DNA of 64,000 nt, taken from the NCBI GenBank assembly GCA_000091205.1, contig AP006492.2; one strand, given 5' to 3'. How positions within the stretch are numbered: the first letter of the stretch is position 1; every line of letters begins with the position of its first letter. The notes below the pieces were generated by a model. The model was not told the DNA's origin. It ran no database searches and worked only from the letters and a program-made list of their open reading frames with translations. The DNA comes from Cyanidioschyzon merolae. Lineage: Eukaryota. Shown piece after piece: positions 19 to 63,890 of this stretch. The position numbers and the translations under genes are program-made.

Positions 19-169
19 GACGCAATGCCCCATTACTGCGGTGTTCTCAGAGCAAAAGCATCTGTCAGAGCGATGTCTACCAATCCAGGTTCGTTCGGGT
101 ATTTTTCCGGCGGTACGATCTGAGCAAATACGCATCTGTCTTATCTACATCCAGCACACCAGTGCCCTT

Positions 170-3100
170 ATGGATCTCCTTCCAGCGCTTTGCTTTTGTT
201 TGTTTCGACAGAGCCTGTTTTACTGACCAGACGCCGAGATTGCCGGATTGATACTTGTTTCGGAAAATCCTTCGTCACGCTGGACAATTTCGGTGATTTT
301 TGTCGCATTTACCTAATCTCGGCTGTACTGATTGTATCTGACTTTCTATCGTGCGCCGTTTACCTACCTTGAGCACCCGTTGTAGCCTCTCTATCGCCGC
401 TGTGGGTGCTCTCCGGAAGCAGGGCTGCTCTGACATACCACTGGGCGCGTTGGAAGGGGCTTGGTTCATGCTACATGGGATCAGGGAGATTTATTTTCTT
501 TGGAGCCTCCAAGCGGATCTTGCAGACGATTTGCATGCGGTAGCGTAAAACGGCGTACTATCTGTTCACCGCGACGGTGTTAGCGCTCAGACGCAGCATG
601 CCTGCTCCTAGTCCCGAAATTAATTGCGTTTTGGATGAGTTGCCCAAGTGTCTCATATCACTCTCCACTGAAAGTCACACGGAGGGCAGGCCGGTAGTCT
701 CGCGGCACGCAGACCTTCCGATTAAATGTAACACTTTGACCATACGCGAAATCATCTTCTTTACGTTTACACTAGGTTGCAATAGTACTTGCTATCCTGT
801 TTGTGCATATTGGTTAATTTTTTTGCATTTTCTCTGTCGTGCGTCCTGGTAACGCATCGCGAAATCTGGCCGTCACGTCACCCAACGTGCGCCTCTCCGA
901 TCAAGAAAAACGCGGTAATGACCTCTTCTGGAGCGACTGCTCTATCGGGGCCACTTGTATTTGCGATCGAATCGTAGCAAAGTATAGTTTTGGCTTCAGT
1001 GGCGTTCCAATCTTAAAGTAACTCTATTCACCAGATTCTCGCCGTTCAAAGCAGAAGCGTCCAATGAGATGTTCTCCCAAAAAATCTGACACTTATGTAG
1101 TATGATGTAGTGGGTTTGGGGTGGCCGGTGCTGCCGGGTGTCAGAATGAAATGAGACATATTGCCTAGCGAAGAGGGTCAGGAAAAGAAGAAGAAGCAAC
1201 ATGGGGGGCCTTACATCGAAGGCCGAAATTGTGACTTCTGTACGACAAGATGGTGGTGGAATCTTATCTTCTCCAACATATCAATGATCCGTACGACTGA
1301 TTGTTGCGAGACGCTATCAGAAACCGTGGCGGATCGTAGGCCGGGTATGTTTGGAGCTTTTCTTTAGGACGTTGGCATTTGGACAGCGACCTGCATCGGG
1401 ACGTAACGCTTATTGCGAAAATGATGTTTCCGGAAAAATTTTTCCAAAAGACTTTCATCAACTACCTGATTGTTTTTAATGGGAAAACATCGGGGATAAG
1501 TGAGCGAGTGCATGCCTTTCTCAAAAATTACGCCAAATTCCTCGTCTTCCGTGCTGAACACAGGGGTGACGCAGACATTTACGAATACAGGGCAAAGAGG
1601 TGCCTTATGAATGTGAGGAACCATAAAATGGCAAACCTCGATTGTTTCATGATACGCGTCGTCTTTGTGCTGTACCCGGGCACATTTCGCGAAGTGATGC
1701 TTGCAATCATCGATGGTATGAAGAACGATCGCCAGCATGGACAGGAGATCAGACTCGTCGACAAGAGGACATCACGCAGGATAATGAATGATGCTTCTGT
1801 AATTCGCGCCACTATTCTAAAACATCGTTCGGTCTTGGGTCATGTCAACCCAAGAGAAAACTCTCGGATATGAGAAACGACGGAGAGAGTTGTTACTCCC
1901 TCATCCTGCCCTGCTTCATGTTTTCGGTCCGAGACCTCGACCGCAGAGCCGACATGGGGCTGAGTGAGGAAAAAATGACGAGTGGGAGAAACGACATTGA
2001 AGTCTTCTCCAGATGCGCTTCAATGTCGGTCAGTTATGCGAGTCCAAGTCACATTTTGTGAGTAACCACTCCATAGTACTTCACGACTTCACGATAGAGA
2101 TTTGTCCAGAGCTCGATGTAATCAACAAATAGGTCTCCGGTGAAGATCGGGACGCCTACGAGAAGAATATCTTCGATTTCAAGCGTCCCGAACCGGCCAA
2201 AAAAAGTTTATTCACTGGAACAATCGATCTCGATGTGGCGCACATATGTGTACACCATCAGCGGTTGAAGGCAGCTCGTCCTATCCCGTCTTCGTTACGG
2301 GCGTTGCCGAAGAACGAACACAGGTTGACGGGCTATGGAACGTATAAGCCCCATGAAAACCACTTTGGCGTCGGCCTTAGTCCCTGGTGCACGAATATCA
2401 TAACCATCGCTGTTCCTAAGCGAAGGGAAGATTGCACTGACTGCACCTTACGTCACAAACATATGCTTCTGCTGAGGTTTTCGAGAGAGAGATACAATCG
2501 AGAATCCGGTATAACGAATGCAAGGAAGAAGATGGTTACGTGGAATGTAGGAATGAAGGATCACCTGGAAGCTTTGAGCGTGGTGACGAGCTGACGAGCG
2601 GACATTCAAGCTTTTCTGAAATTCATGGAAGTTCGTGTTGCTCATTCCGTGGCGCTGTAGGGCGAGTATACAAAGCACCGCTGGGCACGTTTGCGTATGA
2701 ATCTGTGCCGTGGTAAGCATCACGCATTCGCGAGCTTTTTCAATCGATTGAACGCCTTGAAATAGGATCAAGTCAGAGGCTCGTTGTTACATATGGTGTA
2801 GGGAGCTGGGCTCCGAAAAAAAGGGACTCCACCAGCTCCAACGGCAGGAATGGGCAAGGAGTGCGCACTGGGTCTCGCTACGGTACCTGTGGGTGGGTTC
2901 CGAACATCGTATACACACCACGAGTTGGGATGTACTCTTCAGAAGATGGAGATTGAAAAGTGCCCGCGGAGTCGTCATGATATAAAAAAGTAAGGGATAG
3001 CTGACGGGAGAGGAAATGGAAAGGAGGGAAGAAGCTCGTGGACTACTTGCATTAGTAAGTACGACTACCATCGGCAAGAAACGTATGGAGTTCGCGAACC

Positions 3101-3375
3101 GAGTCTTTAACGCTGCAATCAATCTACGGAGATGTGCGGGAATAGACAAAAGACTCCCAGCGGTGACACGAGAGTCCATTGTTGGACAACCTCTTAAACT
3201 GGAACTATATGAGAAACAATGGTGTCCGCAGTAGGTGGCCGGTCGAAAAAGGCGGGAAGGCGTCTGCACGTCAGTTGGCGACTTCTTGTCTAGGGCGCGG
3301 TTGCCGCCACTACTGTACACTGTCGGCAGCAACGTTTTTGTTTCGAAAGATGTTTGTTGTCGTCGGCTGCGGTGG
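170..3375 (+). mobile_element. Fanzor/TnpB-like element, copy A (most degenerate of the three long copies)
   Basis: Collinear DNA similarity to copies B and C over the left end, the ~1 kb non-coding leader, the decayed nuclease ORF and the 3' conserved block (ggcgtctgcacgtcagttgg ... ctagggcgcg ... gccgccactactgtacac). Boundaries are approximate (+/-30 bp), judged by loss of inter-copy similarity. Confidence 0.6.
1199..3330 (+). pseudogene. Fanzor/TnpB-like RuvC nuclease pseudogene (copy A); multiple frameshifts, an internal deletion and an in-frame TAG
   Basis: ATG at 1199 in Kozak-like context (aagaagaagcaacATGG), conserved with copy C. Fragments in three frames match copies B and C: RFNVGQLCESKSHF, TNIITIAVPKR (RuvC-I region), FRTSYTHHELGCTLQ, RMEFANRVFNAAINLRRCAG (RuvC-III). 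In-frame TAG at 2658-2660 where copy B has TGG. Confidence 0.55.
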
Positions 3376-4508: not shown

Positions 4509-5585
4509 TCAAGATGCTTTCTTCGGCGTGCTCTGGAGTGCCTCTATACTGGATTGGAGGTCTTCTTTCTCGTCACTTTCCATGAACGGCAGTATTTGTA
4601 GTACTTCAACGACACCATTCCGACCTAGCACACATGGCAACGACAAGAATACATCCGCCGACTCGAGGCCTCGCAACGAGCCCGCATGCGTCGTTATTGG
4701 CAGCACTTTGCGCCGATCATGCACAATCGTTGTAACGATGCTTCCAACAGCGCTGCCAATGGCCCAGTTGGTGTAGCCTTTCAGCTTAATGACCTCGTAA
4801 GCCGCGGCTACAACTTGCTGATGGACACCTTTCACCAGATCATAGAATGCTGTGGACGCGCTCGCAGCGTCGGTCATGCGCTCGAAGCATGTTCGCAACG
4901 GTACGCCACCAACCGTAATACCACTCCGGTACACGAACGAGGAGTCTCCGTGCTCGCCCAGTACCATGGCCTGGACGGAAGCGGTATCGATGCCCAGCCG
5001 CTGCGCCAGAAGTGTGCGGAAACGCGAAGAGTCCAAATATGTCCCTGAGCCAATCACACGTTCGCGGGGCAAGCCACTCATCTGCCACGCTAGATGTGTC
5101 AGTAGATCAACGGGGTTACTCACAACCAACAGGATTGTGTTCTGCGAATACTGCACCAGGGGCGGAATAATGCCTTTGAACAATGCGGCATTGCGATCCA
5201 TGAGCTCAAGACGACTTTCTCCGGGCCGCTGACGCACACCTGCCGTTATAATACATACTGCCGAATGTGCTGTATCCTCGTAGGACTCGGCAGCCCGGAT
5301 GCGGGTGCTGTAGAACGCACCTCCATGCTGCAAGTCCATAACTTGACCCTTGAGTTTGTCCTTGAGAACGTCCACCAGTACCAGCTCACTACAAATATCT
5401 CGGGTCAAAATATTATAGGCGCAAGCAACGCCAACGTCACCAGCTCCAACCACGGTGATGCGGACGGGGTACGAACGTGCAAGCGCCGCACCCGGCGTGT
5501 CGATCGCAGGCGAGACCTCCCCAAAGAGACTTCCCTGAAGCTCAGCCGCCGCCTCGTCGATCCCTGACGTCGTTCCAAAGAGCAC
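4509..5585 (-). CDS. L-lactate dehydrogenase (LDH/MDH superfamily, LDH-type)
   Basis: 358 aa single ORF with Rossmann motif VVGAGDVG. The segment TAGVRQRPGESRL aligns to LDH Q102...R109. IGSGTYLDSSRFR and VLGEHGDSS are LDH signatures (catalytic His in EHGDS). Stop codon is TGA. Confidence 0.85.
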   Translation of the reverse strand: MLFGTTSGIDEAAAELQGSLFGEVSPAIDTPGAALARSYPVRITVVGAGDVGVACAYNILTRDICSELVLVDVLKDKLKGQVMDLQHGGAFYSTRIRAAESYEDTAHSAVCIITAGVRQRPGESRLELMDRNAALFKGIIPPLVQYSQNTILLVVSNPVDLLTHLAWQMSGLPRERVIGSGTYLDSSRFRTLLAQRLGIDTASVQAMVLGEHGDSSFVYRSGITVGGVPLRTCFERMTDAASASTAFYDLVKGVHQQVVAAAYEVIKLKGYTNWAIGSAVGSIVTTIVHDRRKVLPITTHAGSLRGLESADVFLSLPCVLGRNGVVEVLQILPFMESDEKEDLQSSIEALQSTPKKAS

Positions 5586-7774
5586 AGTTCCACGATTTGC
5601 TTCCTTGCCAGACAGATCCTCGAAAAAGTCCGACTACAGGTTTCAGATCGCCCGAGCTGCGGTGCAGGGTTGTTTCCAGCACTGGTGCCGAGATCGCTAC
5701 AAACCCGTGATCGTTTTGTTCTCCAGCACTATAGGCCTCGCCAAAACTAGGTACAGTGCTCTTTGATAACACAGCTGTCGGATCCACGAAGGTATTGCTT
5801 TAAGTCAGAGGGAACGCTCGAGACTGAGCGCCCCGAATAAATCATGCTATCCGTTGAGGACACAAAGATGCACTTGAGGGCTTTCGCGATCGCCCAGAAG
5901 CGCCTTCCGGAGATTCGATCCAGAGCGATGCGCGTCTCGATGACGAGTCCGCCTCGGGGCGTTTTTTTCTTTTTGATGAAAAAACGTTTGCATTGACAAT
6001 GCATCCCAGAATTTGGAACGCACGATGGCTTCCGGGGATATCTCGATCATAGTGCACCTGTCCTCAAGTCCCATTATCCATACTACCTCTCTGATATATT
6101 GGTCGTTTCGTATGTTCTATCGAGCGCCGAGCCTGTTGTGAGCACCCGCTGTAGCGCTTATACCGCTGAAGCAGGTGCTGCACAGAGACAGAACGGCTTT
6201 GCCATACCACTAAGGGCGTCCGCTCGAGGAATGATTCACCTGAAACGGAATCAGGGCTATTTGTCATTCTGGGAACATGCAAAATGCGCAGACAGACCTA
6301 CTACCTGCGACAGCGCGAAGTGCTGTACTAGGATTCCACTGCGACCAGTGCGAGGCCCAACGCAGCGTCCTGTGCATATTCTCAGGATAAAATGCGTTGT
6401 GAACGAGCTGCGCAGGTCTTGCAGCAGCAGCAGCAGCAGCGGCAGCGGCCACTTTAGAGGCATACCGAGCTCTAGCCCGGTAGACTCGACCGGCTCGCGG
6501 GACCTTCCGCCTCGAACATAAGCTTCCGATAATACGGCGATCTATTTCCCCTTAAACGCTTATCGTAGAGCGGGAAAAAATTTTATATCGTTTCTTGTAA
6601 ATCGTAGGTCACTGTCCTTTTTCCTGTATGGCGCGCTCGATACGTGCATCTCCAAGTATGGCACTTACGAGACACGACGCATCTGTCGCCTTTGAAGAGA
6701 AACGCGACCGTGACGACACGTTTTCTTGATGTTCTAACGGGCAAGCTGTATTTGCGTGGAAGTCGTAACAAAATATAGTTTCCAGTTCGATTGTGTCTCA
6801 ACCCTCAAGTAAACATATTCAATTGATTTCTCGCAGTATATAATAGAAGGGTTCAAAGAGCGTTCTTTTTCACACAAAAAAATGAAAAGAAAAGCTATGA
6901 AAAAGCAAGTTGACGATCCTGGAGGCCCAGTGTCGCCTGCTGCCAGAAATAAAAACAAAAAACAGAGCCGAGTCCAGAAGAACAGGAAAAGAAGAAGAAG
7001 CAAAAGGGGAGGCCCTAAGTCGAAGGCGGCAAGAAAGACGACTGTTCGACGAGATGATGGTGAAAGCCTGTCTTCTTAAACAAATCAAGCATCCTTACAG
7101 GGAAAATTTGCGAGACGCTATCAAAAAACGATTCGATTCGTACTCCATTGGTATTTTCAAGGCGTTGTCAAGACTGATGCATTTGGCGAGGGAGATGTAC
7201 GAAAACGTGGCGCACTTGGAAACGGTCGAGATTCCGGACGATTTTTTCGGTAAGACATTTATTCGACACCTAATGCTTGGCACAGCGGAAACGCGGAGGG
7301 AAAATGTGCTAGTGCATGGCCTTTACGAAAAACATCCCCTCTACAGCTTCAACAGTACTCTGTACAGGGGTGATTCGAATGTTTACGTATAAGGGGCGAC
7401 GAAGTACATCACGAAACTGTGGTTCACGTGATCGTGAAACTCGAACGTTTCATGATACGCGCCGTGTTTGCGCTGTACCCGGGTATCTCTCGCAAAGGAA
7501 TATGGGAGATTATCAACGGCATCAAGAACGATCGCAAGCATGAAGGTGAAGTCGAATTCGTCGACACGAAGGCGTTTAACGACAGCACGAATGATACTTC
7601 TGTAATCCATTCGGTTATACAAGAGCACCGTGCAATCTTGGGGCCGGCGAATCCAACAGACAAGACATCAGAGTTGAAAAAAGATAAGGAAAGATACTAT
7701 CGTCTTATTCTGCGCTATTTCATGTTTCTCGACCGAGAACTCGAGCGAAATGCGGAGATGAAGCTGAGTGAAGA

Positions 7775-7781
7775 AAAAAAG
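7775..7781 (+). other. Candidate -1 programmed ribosomal frameshift site: slippery heptamer A_AAA_AAG at the junction of upstream and downstream reading frames of the copy-B nuclease gene
   Basis: Frame-0 codons are gaa|aaa|aag (7773-7781). The downstream conserved frame (frame 2) opens after TGA at 7769-7771 and codes EDWERRKAVLMGKRFNVVPM, conserved with copy C (EELGRRKAAIVGKRF). The upstream frame ends at TAA 7809-7811. Copies A and C change frame by -1 at the same place. Confidence 0.35.
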
Positions 7782-8128
7782 AAGATTGGGAGAGACGGAA
7801 GGCTGTCCTAATGGGTAAGCGCTTCAACGTGGTTCCAATGTGCAGCATCAAGTCACATTTCGTGAATATCGATTCGGACGTGTTTTACGGCATCATGAAG
7901 GAGATCAGTCCAGTGTTCACTGTTATCAGGGATGACTTCACCGGTGAAAACCGGGCGACGTACTTGAAGAACATCTTCAATTTCAAACGGCTCAAAGTGA
8001 GAAGCCAAAAGGTATTCACTGCGTTGATCGAGACCGATGGAGTAACCTTGTATGTACACTATCGGCGCTTGAAAGTGGACCGTCCGATTGTGCCTTTCGC
8101 TTCGCCCTCTGCGAAGCATTAAAAAATC

Positions 8129-8428
8129 AAAGAAGCGGATCCTGCGACACAGGAGGTGCAGGATGACGACTTTGTCGCTGACGCGGTGAAGGATGAAAAA
8201 GAGAAAGAGGCGGAACCTGTGATGCAGAAAGTGCAGGATAACGACCGTGTCGTTGGCGCGGTGAAGGATGAAGGTCAGAAGGAGGCGGATCCTGCCGAAC
8301 AGAATGTGCAGGATAACGACTTAATGGTTGACGCGACGAGGCATCAAGGAAAGAAAGAGGCGGATCCTGCCATACAGGAAGTGCAGGATAAAGACATTGT
8401 GGTTGGCGCGGATCCTGGGAACACGAAT
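8129..8428 (+). repeat. In-frame 75-bp tandem repeat, 4 units, inside the copy-B nuclease ORF just upstream of RuvC-I
   Basis: Units encode KEADPATQEVQDDDFVADAVKDEKE / KEAEPVMQKVQDNDRVVGAVKDEGQ / KEADPAEQNVQDNDLMVDATRHQGK / KEADPAIQEVQDKDIVVGADPGNTN. Copy C has a single unit (YEKEADPAIQKLQDSDFVVGLNPWNTN). Confidence 0.8.
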
Positions 8429-10585
8429 ATCATCACCATCGCAGCACCGAAGCGTGCGGAAGATGGCATGGACGGTAATTTACGCCAGAAAGACATGCGT
8501 CTGCTGAGGTTCTCGAGAGCGAGATACCATCGAGAATCCGTTGTAGTGAATGCAAGGATGATAATCGTTACGTGGAATGCAGGAATAAAGCATCACCTGG
8601 AAGCTTTGAGCGAGGCGACGAGCCGCGGAGCGGTCTATGAAGCTTTTCGGAAATTCATGGAATTTCGTGTTGCCCATTGGGATGCGCTGTGGGAGGAGTA
8701 TAAAAAGCCCCGGTGGGCTCGTCTGCGAATGAATCTATACGGTGTGAAGCAGCGGGCGTTTGCGAATTTTTTCAATCAGTTGAGCGCCTTTGAGGGGGAT
8801 GACCGTCAGAGGCTCGTAGTAGCGTATGGAGCAGGGCGCTGGAAGAACAGAAAAGGAACTACGCCAGCTCCAGCGACGAAGCTGTACAAGGAGTGCGCCC
8901 GGCGTCTCGTTACGATACCTGTATATGAGTTCCGGACGTCCTATACATACCAGGAACTGGGCTGCACGCTTCAGAGGGTAGAGATGGAAAAGTGCCAGAA
9001 GAGCGCTGAGGAAATTGCAAAAGTACGGACCGCTGGCGGAGGAGCAACTGTAAAGGAAGGCGAAAGTTCAAGGGTTACTCGTATTGGTGAGTACAGCTCC
9101 CAACGGCACGAAATGTATGGAGTTCGTGAACCGAGATTTTAATGCCGCTATCAATATACGGAGATGTGCGGTGCTGGAGAAAAGACCTCCAGACTGGACA
9201 CAAGAGGATTTTATTGGACAACCTCTCAAAGTCGAACTATATGAGAAAAAATGGAAGCAGACGTTGGTGGCCGGTCCAAAAAAACGGGGAGGCGTCTGCA
9301 CGTCAGTTGGAGACCCCTTGCCTAGGGCGCGTTCGCCACTACTGTACACGGCCGGGGGCAACGTTTGTCTTTTGAGAGGCGTTCGGTGCGGGCGCGTCAC
9401 GTCGCTTATTCAGAACGTATTTGCGAAGAGTACCTAGAGTATATGTGGTAATAGTTGATGCTTTTCGTGAAGATATTGCTGCCATGGCTGTAACAGGACT
9501 GATGTGACAGAAAATGTGGAAAATGGGCAACTCGAGTTCTTCTGTATTCGATACATCATCCGCTGCCTTGTCGTTTATCTATCTTCCGAGGGTCCTGTGT
9601 CCATTTATTAGCAACGGATCCGTTTACCAATTTGTTTGCAATGATATAGAACAAGATCAATTGTTTAGAATCGATACTGGCCGCTTCTAGAATGCCTCCA
9701 GCTGTGCTCAAGGTGCTGTGGTAATGCTTACATAGCGTACAGCTCGTCTCAGGATGTGACTGCCTGGCATGATGTGCCTCTGGACCGAGTAACGGTAACT
9801 GCGCATCTACGTCTTCACGGCTTACCACCACTTCGTTCTCGTTTTTTTCTAGTGTACAAGACATAAACATAATCCGGAAATCAGCACAACACTTCAGACG
9901 GTTTTATGGACGTAGCCTACGAGCAACGGTAGGCAACAGTGGTGAATATATCGAGACGATGCCTCGACCGCCAGAACAAGCTATAAGCACTTTCAATGTT
10001 AGAGCTATAAGTGCGCTGTGAGGCTGGCGGCCCTGCTTCCATTCGTGCCAAGCGGAGCCGGAGCCCGTAGGCAGGCGTCACGAATATTAGCTTTTCCTCA
10101 AGAGGAATCGGATTTTGGTGAAATTTGCGGTTGTACGGATCGAGTCAAATTTGCTCCAGAACCTCTCCTCAGGACTAGAATGTGCTCAAGTACAACGAAA
10201 CTCAAAAAACAGTTCCAGACGCTCTACTGCAGACATACTCGCTACATGCAACTCGGAAACCGTATTCCGACTACAAAGAGAAGAAAGGGTACCAAGATAC
10301 CGCCATTACCACCAAGGCTATCATCGGGGGCAAGCTCATAGGCATAGGTAATCATTCCTTTACGTTCCAAAAGCAAATTCTGGTCCATTCTTTCTGTTCA
10401 TCAGATCTCTGAATGTCAGCCCCCGAAGAGGACCTCAGATGACACTTCGCGCACAAATATCCACATTAACGCATTCGTTCATTCGTACTCTCGGGTCTTG
10501 TGAACATGAGTGGAATATTGTCGCAACAGAGGATCAGCATAGACGTGATCTAGACTGTGGGCAAATTAACAGTTGAAACGTTCGC

Positions 10586-13500
10586 TCACGCAGTCGGTGG
10601 AGCTGAAGATGTCGCTGATTCCGAGGCGCTCGCAGACGTCGACACAGAAGCTGAAACTGAAGCACTCGCTGATGCACTCGTTGATGCACTCGCAGACACC
10701 GTCGCAGAAGCTGTCGCAGAGACTGTTGCAGACACCGTCGCAGAGGGTGCCGCTGTCACAGCCACGGGACTCGGAGTCGGTGTTGAACTAATCACCACAC
10801 ACTGGTTGTTGATGCACTCCTCGTCAGCGCGGCAGCAACGCACCTTGCTCACAAGGTTATCCGAAGGGATCAGGTACGTCCCGCACTGCTTCGTAGGGTC
10901 CTTGCACACACAGAATGACGGCAGCAGCACCTGTTGTTGCTGCTGTTGCTGCAGTTGCTGCTGCTGCTGCTGGTTGTTGTTGTTGCTGAACGGGTTGTAC
11001 GTGCAGTTCTGCGTCTCGGCGTTGCAGCACTCGGGGCCGCAAGCAATATAGCTCGAGTTCGATACGTTGCTAGTGGTGCCGCTCAGCGAGTTCGACACAT
11101 ACCCGTAGGTCTGGCACACGTACTCGGTCATCGGCTGGAAGCACTCGTTGCTGAGCCCCAGGCAGCAACCAGCCTCCAGACACTGCTGTGGCGAGTAGCT
11201 CGTGCGCTGCGTCCCGTGCTGCTCTCCGTACAGGAGCGTGTTCAGCAGACGCACAAACTGGTTGTTGTTGATGTTATTGTTCAGCTGCTGGTTCTGATTC
11301 ACCGCGTTCGTGCACGGCTGGCGCTCAAACTCGCCCACCGCGCACGTCTTCTCGGGCTGGAAGCAGTACGGGTTCGACTCAAAGTCGCTCTGCTGCTTGC
11401 CGTTCTGCACCCACTGGTTCTGCGCCTGCGAGTCGTAGCAGCAGCCCTGGGCATAGCACGTAAACTGGTTGATACCCGCGTTGCCGCACGGCTGGCGCTG
11501 CGCTCCCGGTGACGGGCAGACGGGTACTGGTGCCTGCACCTCCTGCAGCGCTACAGAGGCCTGCGGTGCATGGTTGATGTCGTAGTAGCACCAGGGTGCC
11601 AGGATGCCGTTTGCCGTTGGCTGCCAGCAGCATCCCGGTATCGCAGTGCACTCGTCGGGATAGATGTAGCTCCAGCCGCAGGGGACGCGCTGCGTCACTG
11701 GAACAGCGCTGCACGCCGCTGAGACGCTCTTCAGGGTGCACGCGTTCGTCTGGGAGTTAAAGCAGCACCCGACTTGCTCGCAAGCGTCCTGGTTTGTGTA
11801 CTGGCCCGGAGAACCGCAGATTTCACTCGTGCAAACTGGTGTTGGCGTTGCACTCGGTGTCGGGGTTATAATAGCAAGTGTCGCACCAGAGGGTAGAATT
11901 GTAGAAAGCTGGTCGGTGAAAGTTTGAAGCACACTTTGCAGTTCACTGGCGAGGGATGTGTCTCCTGAGATCTTAATCACATAGGTCACAACACTGCCGC
12001 CCGAAGTGCGCACCAATGCTCGTTCCAGACGAAGATTGCTCTTGTCTAATGTGGTGGCGAGGCGCCTTGATGTGCCCGAACCGAAGACCGTGTCGCAGTT
12101 ATCAGTCACGCTGACATTCACTACCTGGCCCGTGAAGCGAGCCTCGAGATCGTTCTGCAAATCCGTCGCCACGGCCAAACAAAGAGAAAGATTCTGAACG
12201 GATATCGCAATCGAGGTGGAAATCGTCGTCGGCACGATTGTTGGTGACGTTGTTGCAGTTGGAGTCATCGTCGGCGTCATCGTCACTGTCGTTGGAGACT
12301 CTGTTACAGTAATCGTTGGCGATGATGTAATTGTCGGAGTCATCGTCGCAGTCGGTGTCGGTGTAGGTGTAGGTGTAGGTGTCGGTGTCGGTGTCAGTGT
12401 AGGTGTCGGTGTCAGTGTCGCAGTCGGTGTCGCAGTCGGTGTCGCAGTCGGTGTCGGTGTCGGTGTCGGTGTCGCAGTCGGTGTCGGTGTCGGTGTAGGT
12501 GTCAGCGTGGGTGTCGGGGTCGCAGTAGCAGTTGGCGTAATCGTTGGTGTCAGAGTTGGCGTTGATGTTGGCGTAGGCGTAGGGGTAGGCGTAAAGAACG
12601 TTTCACTCAGTGCGAAAACATCATTGAGATAGCCAGGAATGCTAGTGTTTGAGTATCCAAATCCGCCAAACATGACCGGATCAGTCCCACTTGTGTTCCA
12701 GAAAACTGACCCAGTTCGACCGCCAGGCGAAACACTAGGGCTGGTCTTATTCAAAAATCCATATACGGAAAGTGCAAATCCATTTTGGCTGCCATTGATC
12801 CACGCCCACTGACCCAGTGTCATATCAAATACCCACAAATCGTTCAAATCACCGGGGCTCTCACGAGTATTCCCATATCCTTCACCACCAAAAAGTAGCA
12901 GATTACCCAAAGAATCCACGAAACTCACGCCTGAGTCTCTTGCACCAGGGTAACTGGTTGGGGCGAAAGCACCGAGACTTCCATAAGATCCTGGATTGTT
13001 AATAGTGGTATTCCCTGCGATAAAAATCCATACAGATTGACTTATGTTGTAGACCCAGAGATCATTCAACTTCCCTTGTCCTGGTGCTGTGCTGTCGCCG
13101 TAGCCAAGACCACCGAACATCCAGAGATTTCCTTCAAAATCTGTCCAGGTATTCGCGACGATGCGCGCACCTGGTGCACTCGAATTGTTCGCCACGCCAG
13201 GTGCGCTATAGTTGCCAGGCTGGTTAGCAAGTTGTGATCCGCCTCTGTATGCCCATTGCAGTGTAGTGGGATTAAATGACCACAGATCGGAGACAGAATC
13301 CCCAAGATTATTTTCACCACCAAACAACCAAAAAGTACCGTCAGCACCCAACCAGAATGATGCACTGCCTCGGGACCCAGGATTGTAGGAAGGACCAAAG
13401 ACGCCCTCCGCTCCATATATCGTGCCGGCATTTACCGTATCATTCCCGCTGACCCAAGTCCAGACTCTGCTTTCTGTATCGTACATCCACATGTCGTTCA

Positions 13501-18061: not shown

Positions 18062-18363
18062 CGACTAAAGTCGTTCGCGTACGCATACATTTCCAGGGAG
18101 AAATCTCTTTTTCGTTGCTGCACGAGTGATCGCCCATCAATTGCGCAGAGTCCGACTTGTAACTCCCGTAGACTGTCTAGCGTTGAGCGCATCGAGCACA
18201 AGCGCTCAATGTCTTCCACAGAGACTAGGCGAAACTCGCGGTTTGCCGTGCAATAATCTCGTCAGTACTGGTAACTCAGTGCTCCGCATTGTTGCGCTCA
18301 GATAGCGCAAAGATCGTAGTGGCACGATGCTGCACCCCGGGGTACGGCGCCGCGGACACGCAA

Positions 18364-18530
18364 GGGAATTCCCTCCGGCGGGATGATTTCGGTGCATACG
18401 CATCTGGTAAGGCGATGGTTCGAACAGCAGAGCCATTAGGGAATTCCCTCCGGCGGGATGATATCGGTGCATACGCATCTGGTAAGGCGATGGTTCGAAC
18501 ACCAGAGCCATTAGGGAATTCCTTCCGGCG
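18364..18530. repeat. 75-bp tandem repeat (about 2.3 units) abutting the 5' end of element copy C; the unit shares its first ~17 nt and a ggttcga(a)cag motif with the element left terminus
   Basis: Units start at 18364 and 18439 (gggaattccctccggcgggatgat(t/a)tcggtgcatacgcatctggtaaggcgatggttcgaaca(g/c)cagagccatta). A third partial unit gggaattccttccggcg runs directly into the element (ttatgcttttttggttcgacagaacgtttctactgacc). Confidence 0.8.
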
Positions 18531-21500
18531 TTATGCTTTTTTGGTTCGACAGAACGTTTCTACTGACCATGCATCCCATGTTTCCGGGTCGATATTGGCT
18601 TTCGGGAAAGCGTCCATCATGTTGGACTACTTCTGCACGTTACATCGCTTTTGCTTACTCTCTGCTGTACTGGTCGTCTCATTTTTTCTATTGTGCGCCG
18701 GTTGCCTGCCATGAGCACCCGCCGTAGCATCTCTATCGCTGGTGCGGATGCGCTACGAAAACAGAACAGCTTTGGCATACCACTGAGCGCGTCGGAAGAG
18801 GCATTGTACAAGCGATACGGAATCAGGGCTATGTATATTTTTGGGAGCCTCCAATCTGGACAGGCTGACCTTCTGCCTGTGGTAGCGGGAAGCGGTATTG
18901 TAGGATTCCTCCGCAACCAAGGTGATGCCCAGACCCAGTATACGCGCTCCTAGTGCCAAAATCAAATGCGTTTCGGACGAGGTGCTCAGGTGCGTCACAT
19001 CACCCACCACCGCAGAGTCACACGGCGTACAAGCCGGTAGAGTCTCGCGGCTTGCAGACCTCGCGCCTAAAAGGCAACTGTTTGACCAAACGCAAAAACA
19101 TCCTGCTTTGAACGTTTATTGTAGATGGCAATAGAACTTGCTATTCCGTTTGTGGATATTGGTTAGTTTTCGGCATTTTCTATTTCGTGCGCCCTGGCAA
19201 CGCATCTCGGAATCTGGCCGTCACTTCACACGACGTTCTTCTCGCCGATGATGCGAAACGCGGTAATGACCTCTTTTGGAGCTATCGCTCTATCGGGGCC
19301 AGTTGTATTTGCGCTCGAATCGTAGAGAAGGATAGTTTCGGCTTCAATTGTGTTTCATACTTCATGTAAGGATATTTAAGTGATTTCAGCCGTTCAAAGC
19401 AGAAGCGTCCAATGTGTTCTCCCCCAAAAAACAAAAGGTAGACTCATGTAATTGGAAGTAGAGGGTTTTGGATGGCCGGTGTTGCCCGAAGTTAGAAGAA
19501 AACGAGGAACAGTGCCTCGCAAAGAGAAACAGGACAGGAAGAAGAAGCAAATGGGGGAGGCCTTTTGTCGATGGCTGCAAGAGTGACGTCTCTACGATGA
19601 GATGGTGGTGGAATCCTGTCTTCTTCGACGTATAAAGGATCCGTACGAGGGAGAGTTGCGAGACGCTATGAGAAACCGTGTCGACTTGTACTCCATGAGT
19701 ATTTCCAAAGCGTCGTCACGACTGATGCATTTGGCGAGGGAGATGTACGAAAACGTGGCGCACTTGGGAACGGCCGAGATTCCGGCGATTTTTTCGATAA
19801 GACCTTTATTCGACACCTGATGCTTGCCACAGCGGAAACGCGGAGGGAAAATGTGCTAGTCCATGGCCTTAACGAAAAACATCCCTTTTACAGGTTCGAG
19901 GCTACTCGATACAATGCTGACCGGGATATTTACATGTACGGAGCGATGAAGTATATCACGAACCTGAAGAATCTTTTGGCAGTGAACCTCGAACGTTTCA
20001 TGATACGCACCGTGTCTGCACACTGCCCGGGCATCTCTCGCAAAGGAGTATGGGCGATTATCAATGGCATCACGAACGATCGTAAGCGTGAAGATGAGGT
20101 CGAATTTGTCAGGGAGAAGGCGTCATGCAGGAGTACGAATGGACTTCTGTAATCCGTGCGGCTATACAAGAGCACCGCGCAGTCTTGGGGTTGGCGAATC
20201 CAACAGACAAGATGTCAGACTTGAAAAAGATAAGGAAAGATACTATCGCCTCATCCTGCACTATTTCGTGTTTTTAGACCGTGAACTCGAACGCAAGGCA
20301 GCGATGAAGCTGAGTGGGGAAAAAATGAAGAGTTGGGGAGACGGAAGGCGGCCATAGTAGGGAAGCGCTTCAACGTGGTTCCAATGCGCAACATCAAGTC
20401 ACAATTTGTCACCATCGACTCCAGAACCCTTCATGGCATCATGAGAGAGATCAGTCCCGAGTTCAATGTTAACAGGGCGGAGGTGACCCGTGAAACCCGC
20501 GAGACGCACTGGAAGAATCCCTTCGATTTCAAACGTCACAAAGTCAGCAAACAAAAGAAATTCACCGGGATGATCGAAACCGATGGATTAGCCATGTGTG
20601 TACACTGTCGGCGGTTGAAGGCAAATCGTCAAGTTCCGTCTTCGATATTGCCCGTTACGAAGCATGAATATGAGAAGGAGGCGGATCCTGCGATACAGAA
20701 ACTGCAGGATAGCGACTTTGTCGTCGGCCTTAACCCCTGGAACACAAACATTATAACCATCGCTGTACTAAAGCGTCCGGAAGATTGCACCGACGGCAAC
20801 TTACGTCAGAAATATATGCGTCTTCTGAGGTTCTCGAGAGCAATATACAATGGAGAATCCGGTATGATCAATGCAAGGAAGAAAATCGAGACTTGGACTT
20901 CAGGAATGAAGGATCAAATGGAAGCTTTGAGCGAGGTGACGAGCCGCGGAGCGGACTTTGAAGCTTTTCTGAAATTCATGGAAGTTCGCATTGCGCATTG
21001 GGATGCGCTGTAGGAGGAGTATACAAAGCCTCGGTGGGCTCGTTTGCGTGTGAACTTGTACTGCGGGAAGCAGCGTGCATTCGCGAACTTTTTGAATGAA
21101 TTGAGTGCCTTGAAGAAGGATGAAAGTCAGAGGCTCGTAGTATCGTATGGGGCAGGACGCTGGGCGTCGAAGAAAGGGACTACACGTGCTCCAACCACAA
21201 GACCGTACAGGGAGTGTGCACGACGCTTCGTTACGATACCGATAGATGAGCTCCGAACATCGTATACTCACCATGAACTGGGACGTACACCTCAAAAAGT
21301 CGAGATGGAAAAGTGTCAGCAGAGCCCTGAGGATATAAAAAAGTACGGACCGCTGACGGAGGAGCAAATGGAAAGGAAGACGAAAGTTCGTGGACTCCTT
21401 GCATTAGTAAGTACAACCAATAATGGCAAGGAACGTATGGGGTTTGTGAACCGAGACTTTAACGCCGCCATCAATATCAGGAGATGCCCTGTGATGGAAA

Positions 21501-21718
21501 AAAAAAGACCCCCAGAGTCGACACGAGAGAGAATTCTGTTGGACAACCACCCAAAGTGGAACTATATGAGAAAAAGCTGGAATAAGTCGTACGTGGCCGG
21601 TCCAAAAAAACTGGGAGGCGTCTGCACCTCAGTTCCAAACGTTCTGACTAGGGCGCGTTTGCCGCCACTGCTGTACACCGCTGGCGACGTTCGACTTTAG
21701 AACAGCGTTGATGGTGCT
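18515..21718 (+). mobile_element. Fanzor/TnpB-like element, copy C
   Basis: Collinear with A and B across leader, ORF and 3' block. The right end (...gcgacgttcgactttagaacagcgttgatggtgctgcg) is shared with fragment E up to ...gttgatg(g/a)tgct and ends within about 4-8 bp of the WD40 gene ATG (21722). Confidence 0.65.
19551..21700 (+). pseudogene. Fanzor/TnpB-like RuvC nuclease pseudogene (copy C)
   Basis: ATG at 19551 (caaATGGGGGAGG). In-frame TGA at codon 12. Frameshifts near 19815 and 20100, plus the family-wide -1 junction at about 20320. In-frame TAG at 21011-21013 (copy B has TGG). The C-terminal part is continuous: IDELRTSYTHHELG...GKERMGFVNRDFNAAINIRRCPVM (RuvC-III). Confidence 0.6.
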
Positions 21719-33229: not shown

Positions 33230-33660
33230 TTCATTTCCAAAAAAAAAATAAGGAATGAGCCGCAGTGCGCACTTCAGTAGGCCGAGATGGAGCGCCGGCA
33301 GCCAAGCGCATCGGTAATAGAGAAGCACGCAGAGCTGACAGAGCCCCAAATGGTACTAATGGCACGAGTTCGAGGAATCGGTGTACTGATGAGTTCCATT
33401 AGAGGCAATGCACGCATGGAATTCATAAACCGAGGCGTCAACGCCGCCACCAACATCAGGAGATGTTCAGCGCTCCAGACGAGACCTGCGGAGCATTCGC
33501 GAGCGAACGTTATCGTGATGCTTCTCAGGCTCCAAGTTTGCATGGAGAAACTGTAACCGATAGCAGGGAGCCGGTAAAAAAGGCTGAAAGGCGTCTGGGC
33601 ATACCTATTAATTTCCATTAGATGCTCGTGAAACGTTGTCGCTCCATCGGGCATATTCCA
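33230..33660 (+). mobile_element. Short 3'-end derivative of the Fanzor-like element (fragment D)
   Basis: ORF 33287-33556 encodes ...TEPQMVLMARVRGIGVLMSSIRGNARMEFINRGVNAATNIRRC, a decayed RuvC-III NAAINI region, followed by a diverged ggcgtctg block. It shares a subfamily-specific sequence and the same 5' breakpoint (...cacttcag(t/a)aggccgagatgg) with fragment E. Confidence 0.5.
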
Positions 33661-36076: not shown

Positions 36077-36392
36077 GTTCCAGTCCGTGCGGTAAAATCG
36101 ATGCGGTAAGCAACATATTATGAGACACGAGTGGACAGTAATGGATCGATTGCCTTGCATGCCGTGCGGTAAGATTGATGCGGTAAGTATCCAATTATGG
36201 GACAAGAATGGTCAATAATCGATCGATCATGATGCATGTCGTGCGGTAAGCTTGATGCGGTAAGTATCCTATTATGAGACACTAGTGAACGACCATCCAT
36301 AGATTGCCTTGCATGTCGTGCGGTAGGAACGATGTGGTTAGCATCATATTATGAGACAATCATGATCAATAATCGATCGATCACCTCGCACG
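36077..36392. repeat. Tandem repeat, about 80-bp subunits x4 (alternating two subunit types, effectively ~160 bp x2), in the 5' flank of the FkbM methyltransferase gene
   Basis: Recurrent gtgcggtaag(a/c)ttgatgcggtaag(t/c)a...attatgagaca... with the alternating blocks ggatcgattgccttgcatg and gtcaataatcgatcgatca. It generates the spurious overlapping ORFs 35943-36300. Confidence 0.8.
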
Positions 36393-62742: not shown

Positions 62743-63435
62743 TCATCGCGAGTCGTCCGTTTCGGTACCCCATACACGATAGGGTCGCTTCTGCAGCGCG
62801 GAATTGTAGTATCGTTCGTCGAGTGTGACCTCGTCCGCCAACCAGGTCGGCCGCTCAAACGCCGTCTCGGGGGTTGGCAGCTCGATCTCCGCGAGGATAA
62901 GAGGAGCATTATCACCCAAGAACTCATCGATCTCCCAAACAAGGCCAGCTTCCTTTGCCGGTATTCGATAGCGCACTTTTTCGATAAGTGGCTGTACACA
63001 GAGTGTGTTCAACAACTCTCGAGCGTCCTCGACTGGGATCGGGTACTCGTACTCGGCCCGCGTGCAACCGTGGGTGCGTCCCTTGATCGTCAAGAAGCCG
63101 CTCATGCCAGCAACACGGACGCGTACGGTGCGGTCGGGTTCACTGCACAGGTAGCCTTGCGCGAGATGTGTGCCCTGCGAAGTGCACAACAGCCGACGAA
63201 CTTGGTCAGCGTGCACCAGAAACTTGCGCTCAGTCTCGCGGTTCGCTGCGCGGTTCACCCCACCGTGTTGCATTCGCGGAGCACTGGATCCTAAAAGCAC
63301 CGAGATTTTCGAATCTAGCTTTAGAGTGTGAACTCGAGGAGGAGGAGACCACCTGAACGTGGTGCGCCCAAGAAACGGCCGTGCAGCAGGCACGAAGAGC
63401 ATCATCAACGTCGTTCGAAAGTCGAACGACGTCAA
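62743..63435 (-). CDS. CYTH-domain protein (CyaB/thiamine-triphosphatase-like triphosphate tunnel metalloenzyme)
   Basis: ETERKFLV (the CYTH hallmark E-x-E-x-K near the N-terminus) ... RVRVAG...FLTIKG ... EYEYPIPVEDARELL ... LVWEIDEF ... LILAEIELP. The likely start is Met at 63273 (MQHGGV...), giving about 176 aa; the upstream 54 in-frame codons are uncertain. Confidence 0.7.
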   Translation of the reverse strand: MTSFDFRTTLMMLFVPAARPFLGRTTFRWSPPPRVHTLKLDSKISVLLGSSAPRMQHGGVNRAANRETERKFLVHADQVRRLLCTSQGTHLAQGYLCSEPDRTVRVRVAGMSGFLTIKGRTHGCTRAEYEYPIPVEDARELLNTLCVQPLIEKVRYRIPAKEAGLVWEIDEFLGDNAPLILAEIELPTPETAFERPTWLADEVTLDERYYNSALQKRPYRVWGTETDDSR

Positions 63436-63890
63436 CGGTGTACAGTAGTGGCGAGTGACCCGCCCTAGTCAGAACGTCTCCAACTGACGCGCAGAAGCCC
63501 CACAGTCCTTCACAACCGGCCACCTACTACTGCGTCCAACTTTCTCTCAAATAATTCCACTTTGAGAGATTGTCCAATAAAGTTCATTCTTGTCGAGTCT
63601 GGAGGTCTCGTCTGCAGCACCGCACATTTCCTTCTATGGATAGCGGCATTCAAGTCTCGCTTCACAAACTCCGTACGTTTGTTGCCCCCGTTGTTTGTAC
63701 TTACTAATGCAACAGGCCCTCGAACTCGCGCCCTTCTTTCGATTTGCTGCTCAGTCACCTCTTCGTGCTTTTCTACCGCCGATGCGCTCTGCAGCCTGCT
63801 GCCCATCTCGACCTTCTGAAGTGTGCATCCCAGCTGATCCCTTATGTTTTCAAATTAACGCAAAGCTTTATGCGGTTAGGTGAGAACAGT
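63398..63890 (-). mobile_element. Short 3'-end derivative of the Fanzor-like element (fragment E), minus strand, same subfamily and 5' breakpoint as fragment D
   Basis: ORF 63510-63806 (-) encodes ...VEKHEEVTEQQIERRARVRGPVALVSTNNGGNKRTEFVKRDLNAAIHRRKCAV (RuvC-III region). The reverse complement of 63436-63510 matches the 3' conserved block (gcgtcagttggagacgttctgactagggcg...gccactactgtacacc). The terminus ...cgttgatgatgct is shared with copy C. Confidence 0.5.
63408..63432. other. Perfect 11-bp-stem / 3-nt-loop palindrome (aCGTCGTTCGA aag TCGAACGACGt) at the subterminal right end of fragment E
   Basis: Read directly: 63409-63418 cgtcgttcga, loop 63419-63421 aag, 63422-63431 tcgaacgacg, with flanking a/t extending the stem. 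The homologous position in copy C (cgacgttcgactttagaacagcgtt) is a degenerate version. Confidence 0.7.

Follow-up and report, generated by a model that had tools for sequence, protein, structure and literature searches.

Introduction

A single family of Fanzor1 transposons, CMe-1A, has been described for the alga Cyanidioschyzon merolae, with about 150 copies that are about 80% identical to a consensus of approximately 3 kb (Bao and Jurka 2013, Mob DNA 4:12). According to the accessible part of that paper, the family lacks terminal inverted repeats (TIRs), its target-site duplications (TSDs) were not determined, and the 5' 635 bp of the element are 95% identical to the entire TE-N2_CMe repeat, which occurs in about 70 copies. 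Here, we analysed a window of 64,000 nucleotides from C. merolae (contig AP006492.2 of assembly GCA_000091205.1), in which three copies of a repeat, designated A, B and C, carry about 1 kb of DNA in front of a nuclease gene. A preliminary description of the window had regarded this leader (5945-7003 in copy B) as unusually long and well conserved for a 5' untranslated region (UTR) and had proposed a promoter plus leader, a structured non-coding RNA (ncRNA) or the remnant of a lost second gene. We found that the leader is the already described 5' part of CMe-1A, the C. merolae Fanzor1 transposon, and we conclude with a probability of roughly 85% that these 0.9-1.0 kb are a composite and not one functional unit.

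An earlier survey of the genome reported a transcribed, interspersed repeat of 3.2 kb in 253 copies with a truncated open reading frame (ORF) resembling WSV486 of white spot syndrome virus (WSSV) (Nozaki et al. 2007). This repeat probably covers the CMe-1A family, because Bao and Jurka list a Fanzor from WSSV. Fanzor1 elements with differing 5' regions also have precedents. The accessible part of Bao and Jurka (2013) presents chimeric families (MCi-2 subfamilies, ESvi-1B/ESv-2 and Sola2-Fanzor chimeras) in which a constant Fanzor-encoding 3' part is combined with alternative 5' regions, as we found in the lineage of C. merolae for 5' regions of the TE-N2 type, of an unrelated type of about 610-680 nt (X1) and of others. 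The 5' regions of those chimeras frequently code for a transposase of a known superfamily with TIRs and TSDs or are derived from one, whereas the modules of the C. merolae lineage have no coding capacity and no recognisable termini. A second parallel is provided by the 'Ghost' Spu-1 elements of Spizellomyces punctatus (Saito et al. 2023), repeats of about 550 nt without ORFs, which have a part in common with a Fanzor1 element and occur alongside it or in larger numbers. The common part comprises the inverted repeats and the guide-RNA region at the 3' end, whereas TE-N2_CMe shares the 5' region and is devoid of inverted repeats.

The leader is the 5' part of CMe-1A

Copies A, B and C are repeats on the same strand of about 3.3-3.5 kb each, and an inverted 3' fragment is present at 63398-63838. 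We took the 3169-bp CMe-1A consensus from the supplement of Bao and Jurka (2013) and aligned it to the window. Copy B matched the full-length consensus with 83.6% identity (5974-9381), C with 80.9% and A with 72.7%, while the corresponding values for consensus positions 1-905, representing the leader, were 80.1% for B, 73.6% for C and 65.8% for A. The copies share with the described family the host genome, the full-length match to the consensus (84% for B), the layout, with 905 nt preceding an ORF homologous to the single-exon Fanzor1 ORF of 734 aa, and the published identity of about 80%, and they differ from it in nothing essential. They are degenerate, as the ORFs of all three are interrupted by stops and frameshifts, the TATA-like box and the start codon of the consensus are lost in A and C, the catalytic Asp is kept in B only, and 75-nt repeat units precede consensus position 1 in A and C. 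All three are dead copies of CMe-1A. The leaders of A and C, both on the plus strand and aligned to consensus 1-905, extend over 206-1094 (TE-N2 part approximately 206-828) and 18547-19445 (TE-N2 part approximately 18547-19177).

The left terminus had been placed at 5945, 170 and 18515 in B, A and C, but consensus position 1 maps to 5974 in B, approximately 206 in A and approximately 18547 in C. The boundary zone before it in B (5945-5973, plus strand) contains the T-run cgtttttttcttttt as well as the last part of a degenerate 75-nt unit, and such T-runs and partial 75-nt units leave the true left terminus uncertain. Directly upstream of C, a 75-nt tandem repeat was found at 18363-18512, with two units of 97% identity and a partial third; units of the same type precede A (approximately 60-170), and a degenerate one precedes B (approximately 5906-5960), all of them outside the CMe-1A consensus. 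The true left end of the element, or a preferred landing site, may thus lie further left than the consensus indicates.

As the preliminary description had stated, the nuclease body of all three copies has about 1 kb of homologous DNA in front of it (three-way MAFFT alignment; BLAST E values down to 1e-113), and the conserved blocks quoted there are present in the alignment. Its identity level, its start codon (see below) and its terminus had to be revised. Instead of 75-80% throughout, the leaders of A and C are 74.8% identical, those of B and C 63.9% and those of A and B 58.0%, with B as the most divergent copy. No other part of the element is as poorly conserved as the leader, the RuvC half having 75-79% identity and the 3' tail 77-84%. 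The kinship of the copies is mosaic when 100-3352 (A), 5974-9381 (B) and 18547-21707 (C) are compared: the nearest pair is A and C in the leader (75%) and B and C in the N-terminal coding sequence (CDS; 83% overall and up to 94% in 100-nt windows), and in the RuvC half all three are about equally related to one another. This pattern points to recombination or gene conversion among family members.

The reconstructed protein retrieved 75 relatives, mostly from JGI metagenomes, and we compared rates by pairwise identity among 18 non-redundant metagenome copies. The three codon positions of the CDS showed identities of 0.859, 0.878 and 0.782, a modest coding signature, compared to 0.763 for the leader before the ATG and 0.839 for the N-terminal extension of the protein. 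Far from being unusually well conserved, the leader therefore equals or falls below the synonymous sites of the same elements. In 20-nt windows, the identity was 0.60-0.75 (to 0.76) over the region corresponding to B 6637-6820 and rose to 0.76-0.85 from about 6821 onwards, where the TATA-like box, the UTR and the start of the ORF are located. The likeness of the three leaders is best ascribed to shared descent without special constraint, the copies being alike because they are old, dead members of one repeat family.

A TE-N2_CMe-type module joined to a Fanzor core

The distal part of the leader of B (5974-6619, plus strand) aligned to consensus 1-635 with 80.1% identity and represents a non-coding, independently repeated TE-N2_CMe-type module. 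Its link to TE-N2_CMe follows the statement in the accessible part of Bao and Jurka (2013), as consensus positions 1-635 of CMe-1A were used for our comparison. The module of B contains a (CAG)n-type microsatellite insertion at 6418-6450 (plus strand), which is absent from A, C and the aligned metagenome copies. It is followed by the 5' flank of the Fanzor core (6620-6836, plus strand; consensus 636-848) with the blocks tatttgcg..gtcgtaac..atagttt.

Copy B was mapped onto 66 metagenome loci (L numbers in the following) which encode the N-terminal half of the protein. The homology common to nearly all of these loci is limited to B approximately 6630/6671-9385, and at least four unrelated sequences are found upstream of this point. 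In some loci, the TE-N2-type module is contiguous with the core, in others it is absent. It occurs as a solo, full-length unit about 40 nt past the 3' end of a core (L012, 2554-3212), in inverted orientation with its start abutting the left end of a core (L004/5, L014, L022-25, and L003, where it lies between two divergent cores), and in shortened form, fused to an ORF that is likewise truncated (L038/45, L054/56/60/67). A solo unit of about 660 bp is what is expected of an independent element such as TE-N2_CMe, from which the module of B differs in being joined to a core. Many distinct copies have in common an alternative, unrelated 5' module of about 610-680 nt, which lies upstream of the core in L013, L016, L019, L036, L037, L053 and L059 and is carried by most cores from Yellowstone metagenomes. 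In L053, the 3' end of a diverged Fanzor-like ORF lies upstream of it. The C. merolae window itself contains at 33317-33575 a short remnant resembling a Fanzor 3' end (33317-33487) and a 35-nt match to the region upstream of the alternative module (33541-33575).

All copies of the TE-N2-type module have a short A-rich end on the antisense strand, and partial copies mostly keep that end. Searches for features of short interspersed nuclear elements with Rfam and ARAGORN gave no match of the module to tRNA, 7SL or 5S RNA, and only weak, gapped similarity was seen in the search for TSDs around the single solo locus, L012. A tRNA-like A box (CTCAGTGGTATGGC, antisense) was noticed by eye and dismissed, since it found no support from ARAGORN or Rfam and is not accompanied by a B box at the proper distance. 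Every TE-N2-type copy is preceded by GCG..T(7-12)..C..GA, irrespective of the sequence further upstream. Similar T-rich motifs were observed at 5960-5990 (GCG-T7-C..GA), at the junction of module and core (6600-6630) and at the 3' terminus of the element (9355-9381, GCGTTTTTCTTTTGAAAGGCG), so that by eye both element ends are T-rich. They may represent direct repeats at the termini or a motif for insertion, although at such low complexity they could also arise by chance, and the T-run at the left end could form a small hairpin with the following A-run. No inverted repeats of at least 60 nt were found between the element ends; shorter ones were not systematically searched.

A covarying hairpin within the module

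The preliminary description had singled out the block gagcacccg(y)ygtagc, which proved to be a real signal. It forms the 5' arm of an imperfect hairpin at 6141-6179 of copy B (minus strand; 372-410 in A and 18714-18752 in C), which contains gagcacccgctgtagc and consists of two helices with a 2x2 internal loop between them and a 7-nt tip loop. When the aligned copies were checked for covariation, the hairpin showed it and the stem around ccggtag suggested earlier did not. In 18 distinct copies, 73% of the cells are paired compared to 66% in shuffled alignments (reached in 0 of 500) and 24-49% in controls with slid partners, and the covariation score is 0.314 compared to 0.195 after shuffling (again 0 of 500), the structure having been derived from the same 18 related sequences. 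Ten of the 17 pairs have changed on both sides. Wobble-type cells comprise 37 G.U against 10 A.C, which favours the minus strand, on which the hairpin of B folds at -28.9 kcal/mol (z -4.2). On this evidence, it appears to be the only sub-element of the leader with signs of selection, and it may be new: the accessible part of Bao and Jurka (2013) contains no mention of the covarying hairpin, its strand preference or the A-rich antisense end for TE-N2_CMe. No counterpart was detected in the alternative X1 module, which showed no fold beyond that of column shuffles. In L016 (4572-4927), the TE-N2-type module is duplicated in a fold-back (inverted) arrangement, and the strand switch coincides exactly with the hairpin, which suggests that the palindrome promotes rearrangements and may explain the inverted modules beside other cores.

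Strand-specific imperfect hairpins are also found as subterminal palindromes in IS200/IS605 and Helitron elements, and CMe-1A shares with these the combination of such a hairpin, the lack of defined TIRs and TSDs and a gene of the TnpB family. This is a resemblance only, as the hairpin of the TE-N2-type module is located about 170 nt from the module end, and neither an associated HUH transposase nor a defined cleavage motif is present. Nevertheless, the most serious competing explanation of the leader builds on this hairpin. It regards the module as the functional left arm of CMe-1A, whose hairpin, perhaps together with the T-rich terminal motif, is recognised in trans by a transposase, recombinase or reverse-transcription machinery and is needed for mobilising the composite, TE-N2_CMe being a non-autonomous derivative with this arm only. 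The hairpin is indeed the best conserved block of the module besides covarying, it prefers one strand as expected of a single-stranded substrate, and the end containing it is retained by most partial copies. Moreover, the module has its own approximately 70 copies in C. merolae, and T-rich motifs resembling the 3' terminus flank it. A required left arm is difficult to reconcile with the many Fanzor cores in related populations which lack the module or carry the unrelated one of about 610-680 nt, with a hairpin lying inside the module instead of at its end, or with the low complexity of the T-rich motif; in addition, no transposase is known and no TIRs or TSDs are defined for the CMe-1A family in the accessible part of Bao and Jurka (2013). 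We regard this explanation as tentative and rather improbable.

TATA-like box, start codon and N-terminal extension

The start codon had been assigned to aagaagaagcaa(c)ATGGGG at the 3' end of the leader. This sequence exists in A (ATG 1200) and C (ATG 19532), where it is out of frame with the Fanzor body, whereas B has gcaaaagggg at 7000-7009 and no ATG, and ATGGGG is also absent from the majority sequence of 21 copies and from the published consensus. The start codon of the consensus (position 906; ORF of 734 aa) is located about 105 nt further upstream and corresponds to B 6897 (ATGAAAAAGCAAG), so that 6897-7003, the last 107 nt or so of the supposed leader, constitute about the first 35 codons. 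This ATG is kept in B, which has a second in-frame ATG at 6882, and is lost in A and C. The beginning of the ORF (6897-7059, plus strand) codes for a basic N-terminal extension up to the body starting with MVV... The coding nature of the extension is suggested by the consensus ORF, by six metagenome loci with the ATG in frame with the body (L008, L011, L015, L027, L028 and L037) and by a relative with a comparable basic N-terminus (P0052). The frame of B is broken in a poly-A tract, and length variation of this tract shifts the frame in the remaining copies. The tract (6946-6963 in B; consensus approximately 955-975) repeatedly flips the frame between ATG and body and behaves like a mutational hotspot. 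A programmed -1 frameshift at A AAA AAC was considered because ATG and body are out of frame in L001 and B, and was rejected because the length of the tract varies and several copies as well as the consensus are in frame; indel noise is the better reading of these frame differences.

A TATA-like box (TATATAAT) is located at 6837-6844 (plus strand), about 55 nt upstream of the ATG at 6897, and is followed by an A-rich stretch of about 40-50 nt, the presumed 5' UTR (6845-6896). Of the 18 non-redundant metagenome copies, 17 retain a T/A-rich box at this position, as does the consensus (TTTATAG), whereas A and C no longer have it (GTTCAAAGCAG). The proposal of a promoter plus leader thus fits the last 60-270 nt or so before the real ATG, and not the rest. 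An extension of this proposal, in which the entire 1 kb is a long promoter and 5' UTR selected for regulated Fanzor expression, is in line with the position of box and ATG at the 3' end of the leader and with the transcription of the repeat family reported by Nozaki et al. (2007). A box so close to the ATG implies a short UTR, though, the region upstream of it is conserved at or below the synonymous rate, and the distal 645 bp are swapped, inverted or absent elsewhere, which makes a promoter of this length very unlikely.

RNA and coding tests on the leader

A structured ncRNA comprising all or a large part of the leader, such as a 5' guide or scaffold RNA for Fanzor by analogy with the upstream omega-RNAs of IscB, might be expected from a long non-coding leader common to three copies and from the presence of one real hairpin. 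The RNA tests did not support it. Searching the leader against Rfam 15 at E<=1 returned nothing above chance, the only match being a sub-threshold snR75 at 5923-6012 (23.6 bits vs. a gathering score of 40; E 0.35), and ARAGORN detected no tRNA in the window. RNAalifold consensus folds of 12 copies were weak in the sense direction, with -5.6 kcal/mol for the distal module (772 columns, covariation term -0.17), compared to -20 kcal/mol in the antisense direction, nearly all of which derives from the one hairpin. The proximal leader gave -3.6 kcal/mol, and a small local fold was seen in 6836-7055 (-10.4 kcal/mol, z -5.6). The GCCG/CGGC-type stem around ccggtag was paired to 71%, compared to 75% in shuffles, with 0 compensatory changes. 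Furthermore, the module is dispensable and replaceable, the hairpin prefers the antisense strand, and the guide RNAs of characterised Fanzor1 systems are located at the 3' end. The ncRNA reading is largely refuted by these results and has very little probability left.

Equally improbable is a decayed second gene, such as the original transposase or recombinase, even though Fanzor/TnpB elements often have a second gene upstream, B contains a 140-aa ORF (6099-6521) and L001 a 255-aa antisense ORF inserted in its leader: in 12 copies, none of the six frames is open throughout, the identities per phase (0.60/0.63/0.65) show at best a weak codon periodicity, the consensus has no ORF before position 906, and neither the longest leader ORFs nor the 255-aa ORF matched Pfam at E<=1. 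The earlier statement that the leader contains only short, frame-inconsistent ORFs was essentially right. Of its three proposals, then, the promoter survives for the last stretch, while the structured RNA and the gene remnant do not. The insertion in L001 (4725-5640; also in L002 and L003) comprises about 0.9 kb.

The Fanzor1 ORF and its 3' region

The rest of the Fanzor1 ORF of B extends over 7060-9325 (plus strand) and contains stops and frameshifts. Pfam gave no match for the ORF fragments, and a phmmer search of PDB with the single reconstructed protein was likewise negative, so that a family profile was needed. The profile of 13 family members matched the Fanzor1 structures 9cf0 (4.3e-31), 8gkh (2.9e-28) and 9cer (1.2e-19). 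TnpB/Fanzor motifs are present as GADPGNTNIITIA in B and as FVNRDFNAAINIRRC. Of the RuvC motifs, B keeps GADPGNTNI and NRDFNAAINI, while the first Asp is replaced by S/N in A and C. Among all copies, only that of L001 (P0001, 752 aa) is fully intact. Immediately N-terminal to the first RuvC Asp, the ORF contains a 75-nt (25-aa) tandem repeat with four units in B (8113-8412) and one each in C (20659-20733) and A (approximately 2304-2370); the metagenome relatives have about 1 to 6 units (P0001 about 4, P0011 about 6).

The 3' tail of B (9326-9381, plus strand) together with the end of the ORF (from about 9120) is a candidate guide-RNA (omega-RNA) region. This segment (9120-9381 in B, 3076-3352 in A, 21428-21707 in C) shows the highest conservation within the three copies (77-84%). 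Its sense consensus fold is -21 kcal/mol (z -5.2 vs. column shuffles), compared to -1.3 to -2.2 kcal/mol for CDS controls. Few compensatory pairs were found; by eye, CGTCT/AGACG and GGCG/CGCC stems with compensatory variants are recognisable. The homology of the copies runs about 15-20 nt beyond the published consensus end (GGTGGTGGTGTGTG-like). The modelled fold makes this region a likely guide-RNA scaffold, and by analogy with the characterised Fanzor guide RNAs, which are located at the 3' or right end (Saito 2023, Jiang 2023), the guide RNA of this nuclease is expected there and not in the leader, which would render a 5' guide RNA unnecessary.

Genomic context of the window

The window opens at position 1 with repeats of the type CCCCCCATT, the reverse complement of AATGGGGGG, which is the telomere unit of C. 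merolae (Nozaki et al. 2007). Two proteins encoded in the window are identical to XP_005534766.1 and XP_005534767.1 of C. merolae 10D, the latter being a cycloartenol synthase. The telomere-type repeats and these exact protein matches place the window at the left end of a chromosome of C. merolae 10D. Trefoil/Kelch and lactate-dehydrogenase-like genes, which are among the subtelomeric genes of Nozaki et al. (2007), are also present. A lactate/malate-dehydrogenase-like ORF at 4509-5585 (minus strand) lacks an ATG before the NAD-binding domain, and no more than 276 aa remain from its first in-frame ATG onwards; possible explanations are a subtelomeric pseudogene and a start codon other than ATG. 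Tandem repeats were observed within the Kelch/trefoil gene (12278-12595, period of 12/18 nt) and at 36086-36383 (three units of 77 nt).

Discussion

The leader of the C. merolae Fanzor1 copies is most plausibly read as a composite. Its distal 645 bp or so (B 5974-6619) are a TE-N2_CMe-type non-coding repeat with its own copy history, which became joined to a Fanzor core, and in related populations copies with the module, without it, with an inverted one and with a solo one exist side by side. The next 215 bp or so (6620-6836) are the 5' flank of the core, drifting at a roughly neutral rate. The TATA-like box at 6837-6844 and the short A-rich 5' UTR most likely drive the transcription of the Fanzor gene, whose ORF would begin at 6897. 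Within the module, we infer that the hairpin acts in cis, as a structure of single-stranded (antisense-strand) DNA or of RNA in the module's own propagation, and that it is also a point of fold-back rearrangement.

Several points weigh against this composite reading. The evidence for modularity comes mainly from Yellowstone metagenome relatives and not from other copies in C. merolae 10D. The shuffle test of the hairpin may be inflated by the kinship of the sequences used. Codon periodicity is lacking in the N-terminal extension, with 0.84 identity at all three positions, and the assignment of promoter and 5' UTR is drawn from motif position and conservation. Finally, the module may possibly have a function for the composite element, as an arm for left-end recognition, as a homology arm or as the source of an antisense transcript.

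How the module moves can be outlined speculatively. It may be a small mobile element that relies for its propagation on the covarying, antisense-preferring hairpin, either as single-stranded DNA or as antisense RNA, and that has repeatedly inserted next to Fanzor cores or recombined with them at a T-rich motif of the junction. Because the module is A-rich at its antisense-strand end and partial copies are seemingly truncated from the far end, it could be retroposon-like or mobilised as a single strand. We consider this scenario doubtful. As to how the TE-N2 module and the family move, clues but no answers come from the hairpin, the A-rich end on the antisense strand and the T-rich motifs at the junctions. 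If the scenario were true, CMe-1A would be a Fanzor core hitch-hiking on the cis-signals of another element.

The main value of the analysis lies in an exclusion: what might be taken for a novel guide RNA at the 5' end or for a regulatory RNA is a published, neutrally decaying composite repeat. The real start codon and the likely promoter of the C. merolae Fanzor1 are now placed in the coordinates of the window, and the Fanzor cores of this lineage have interchangeable 5' modules of about 650 nt. CMe-1A and TE-N2_CMe belong to the repeat fraction that makes up about 5% of the genome of this model alga, and the hairpin provides a concrete feature bearing on their mobilisation.

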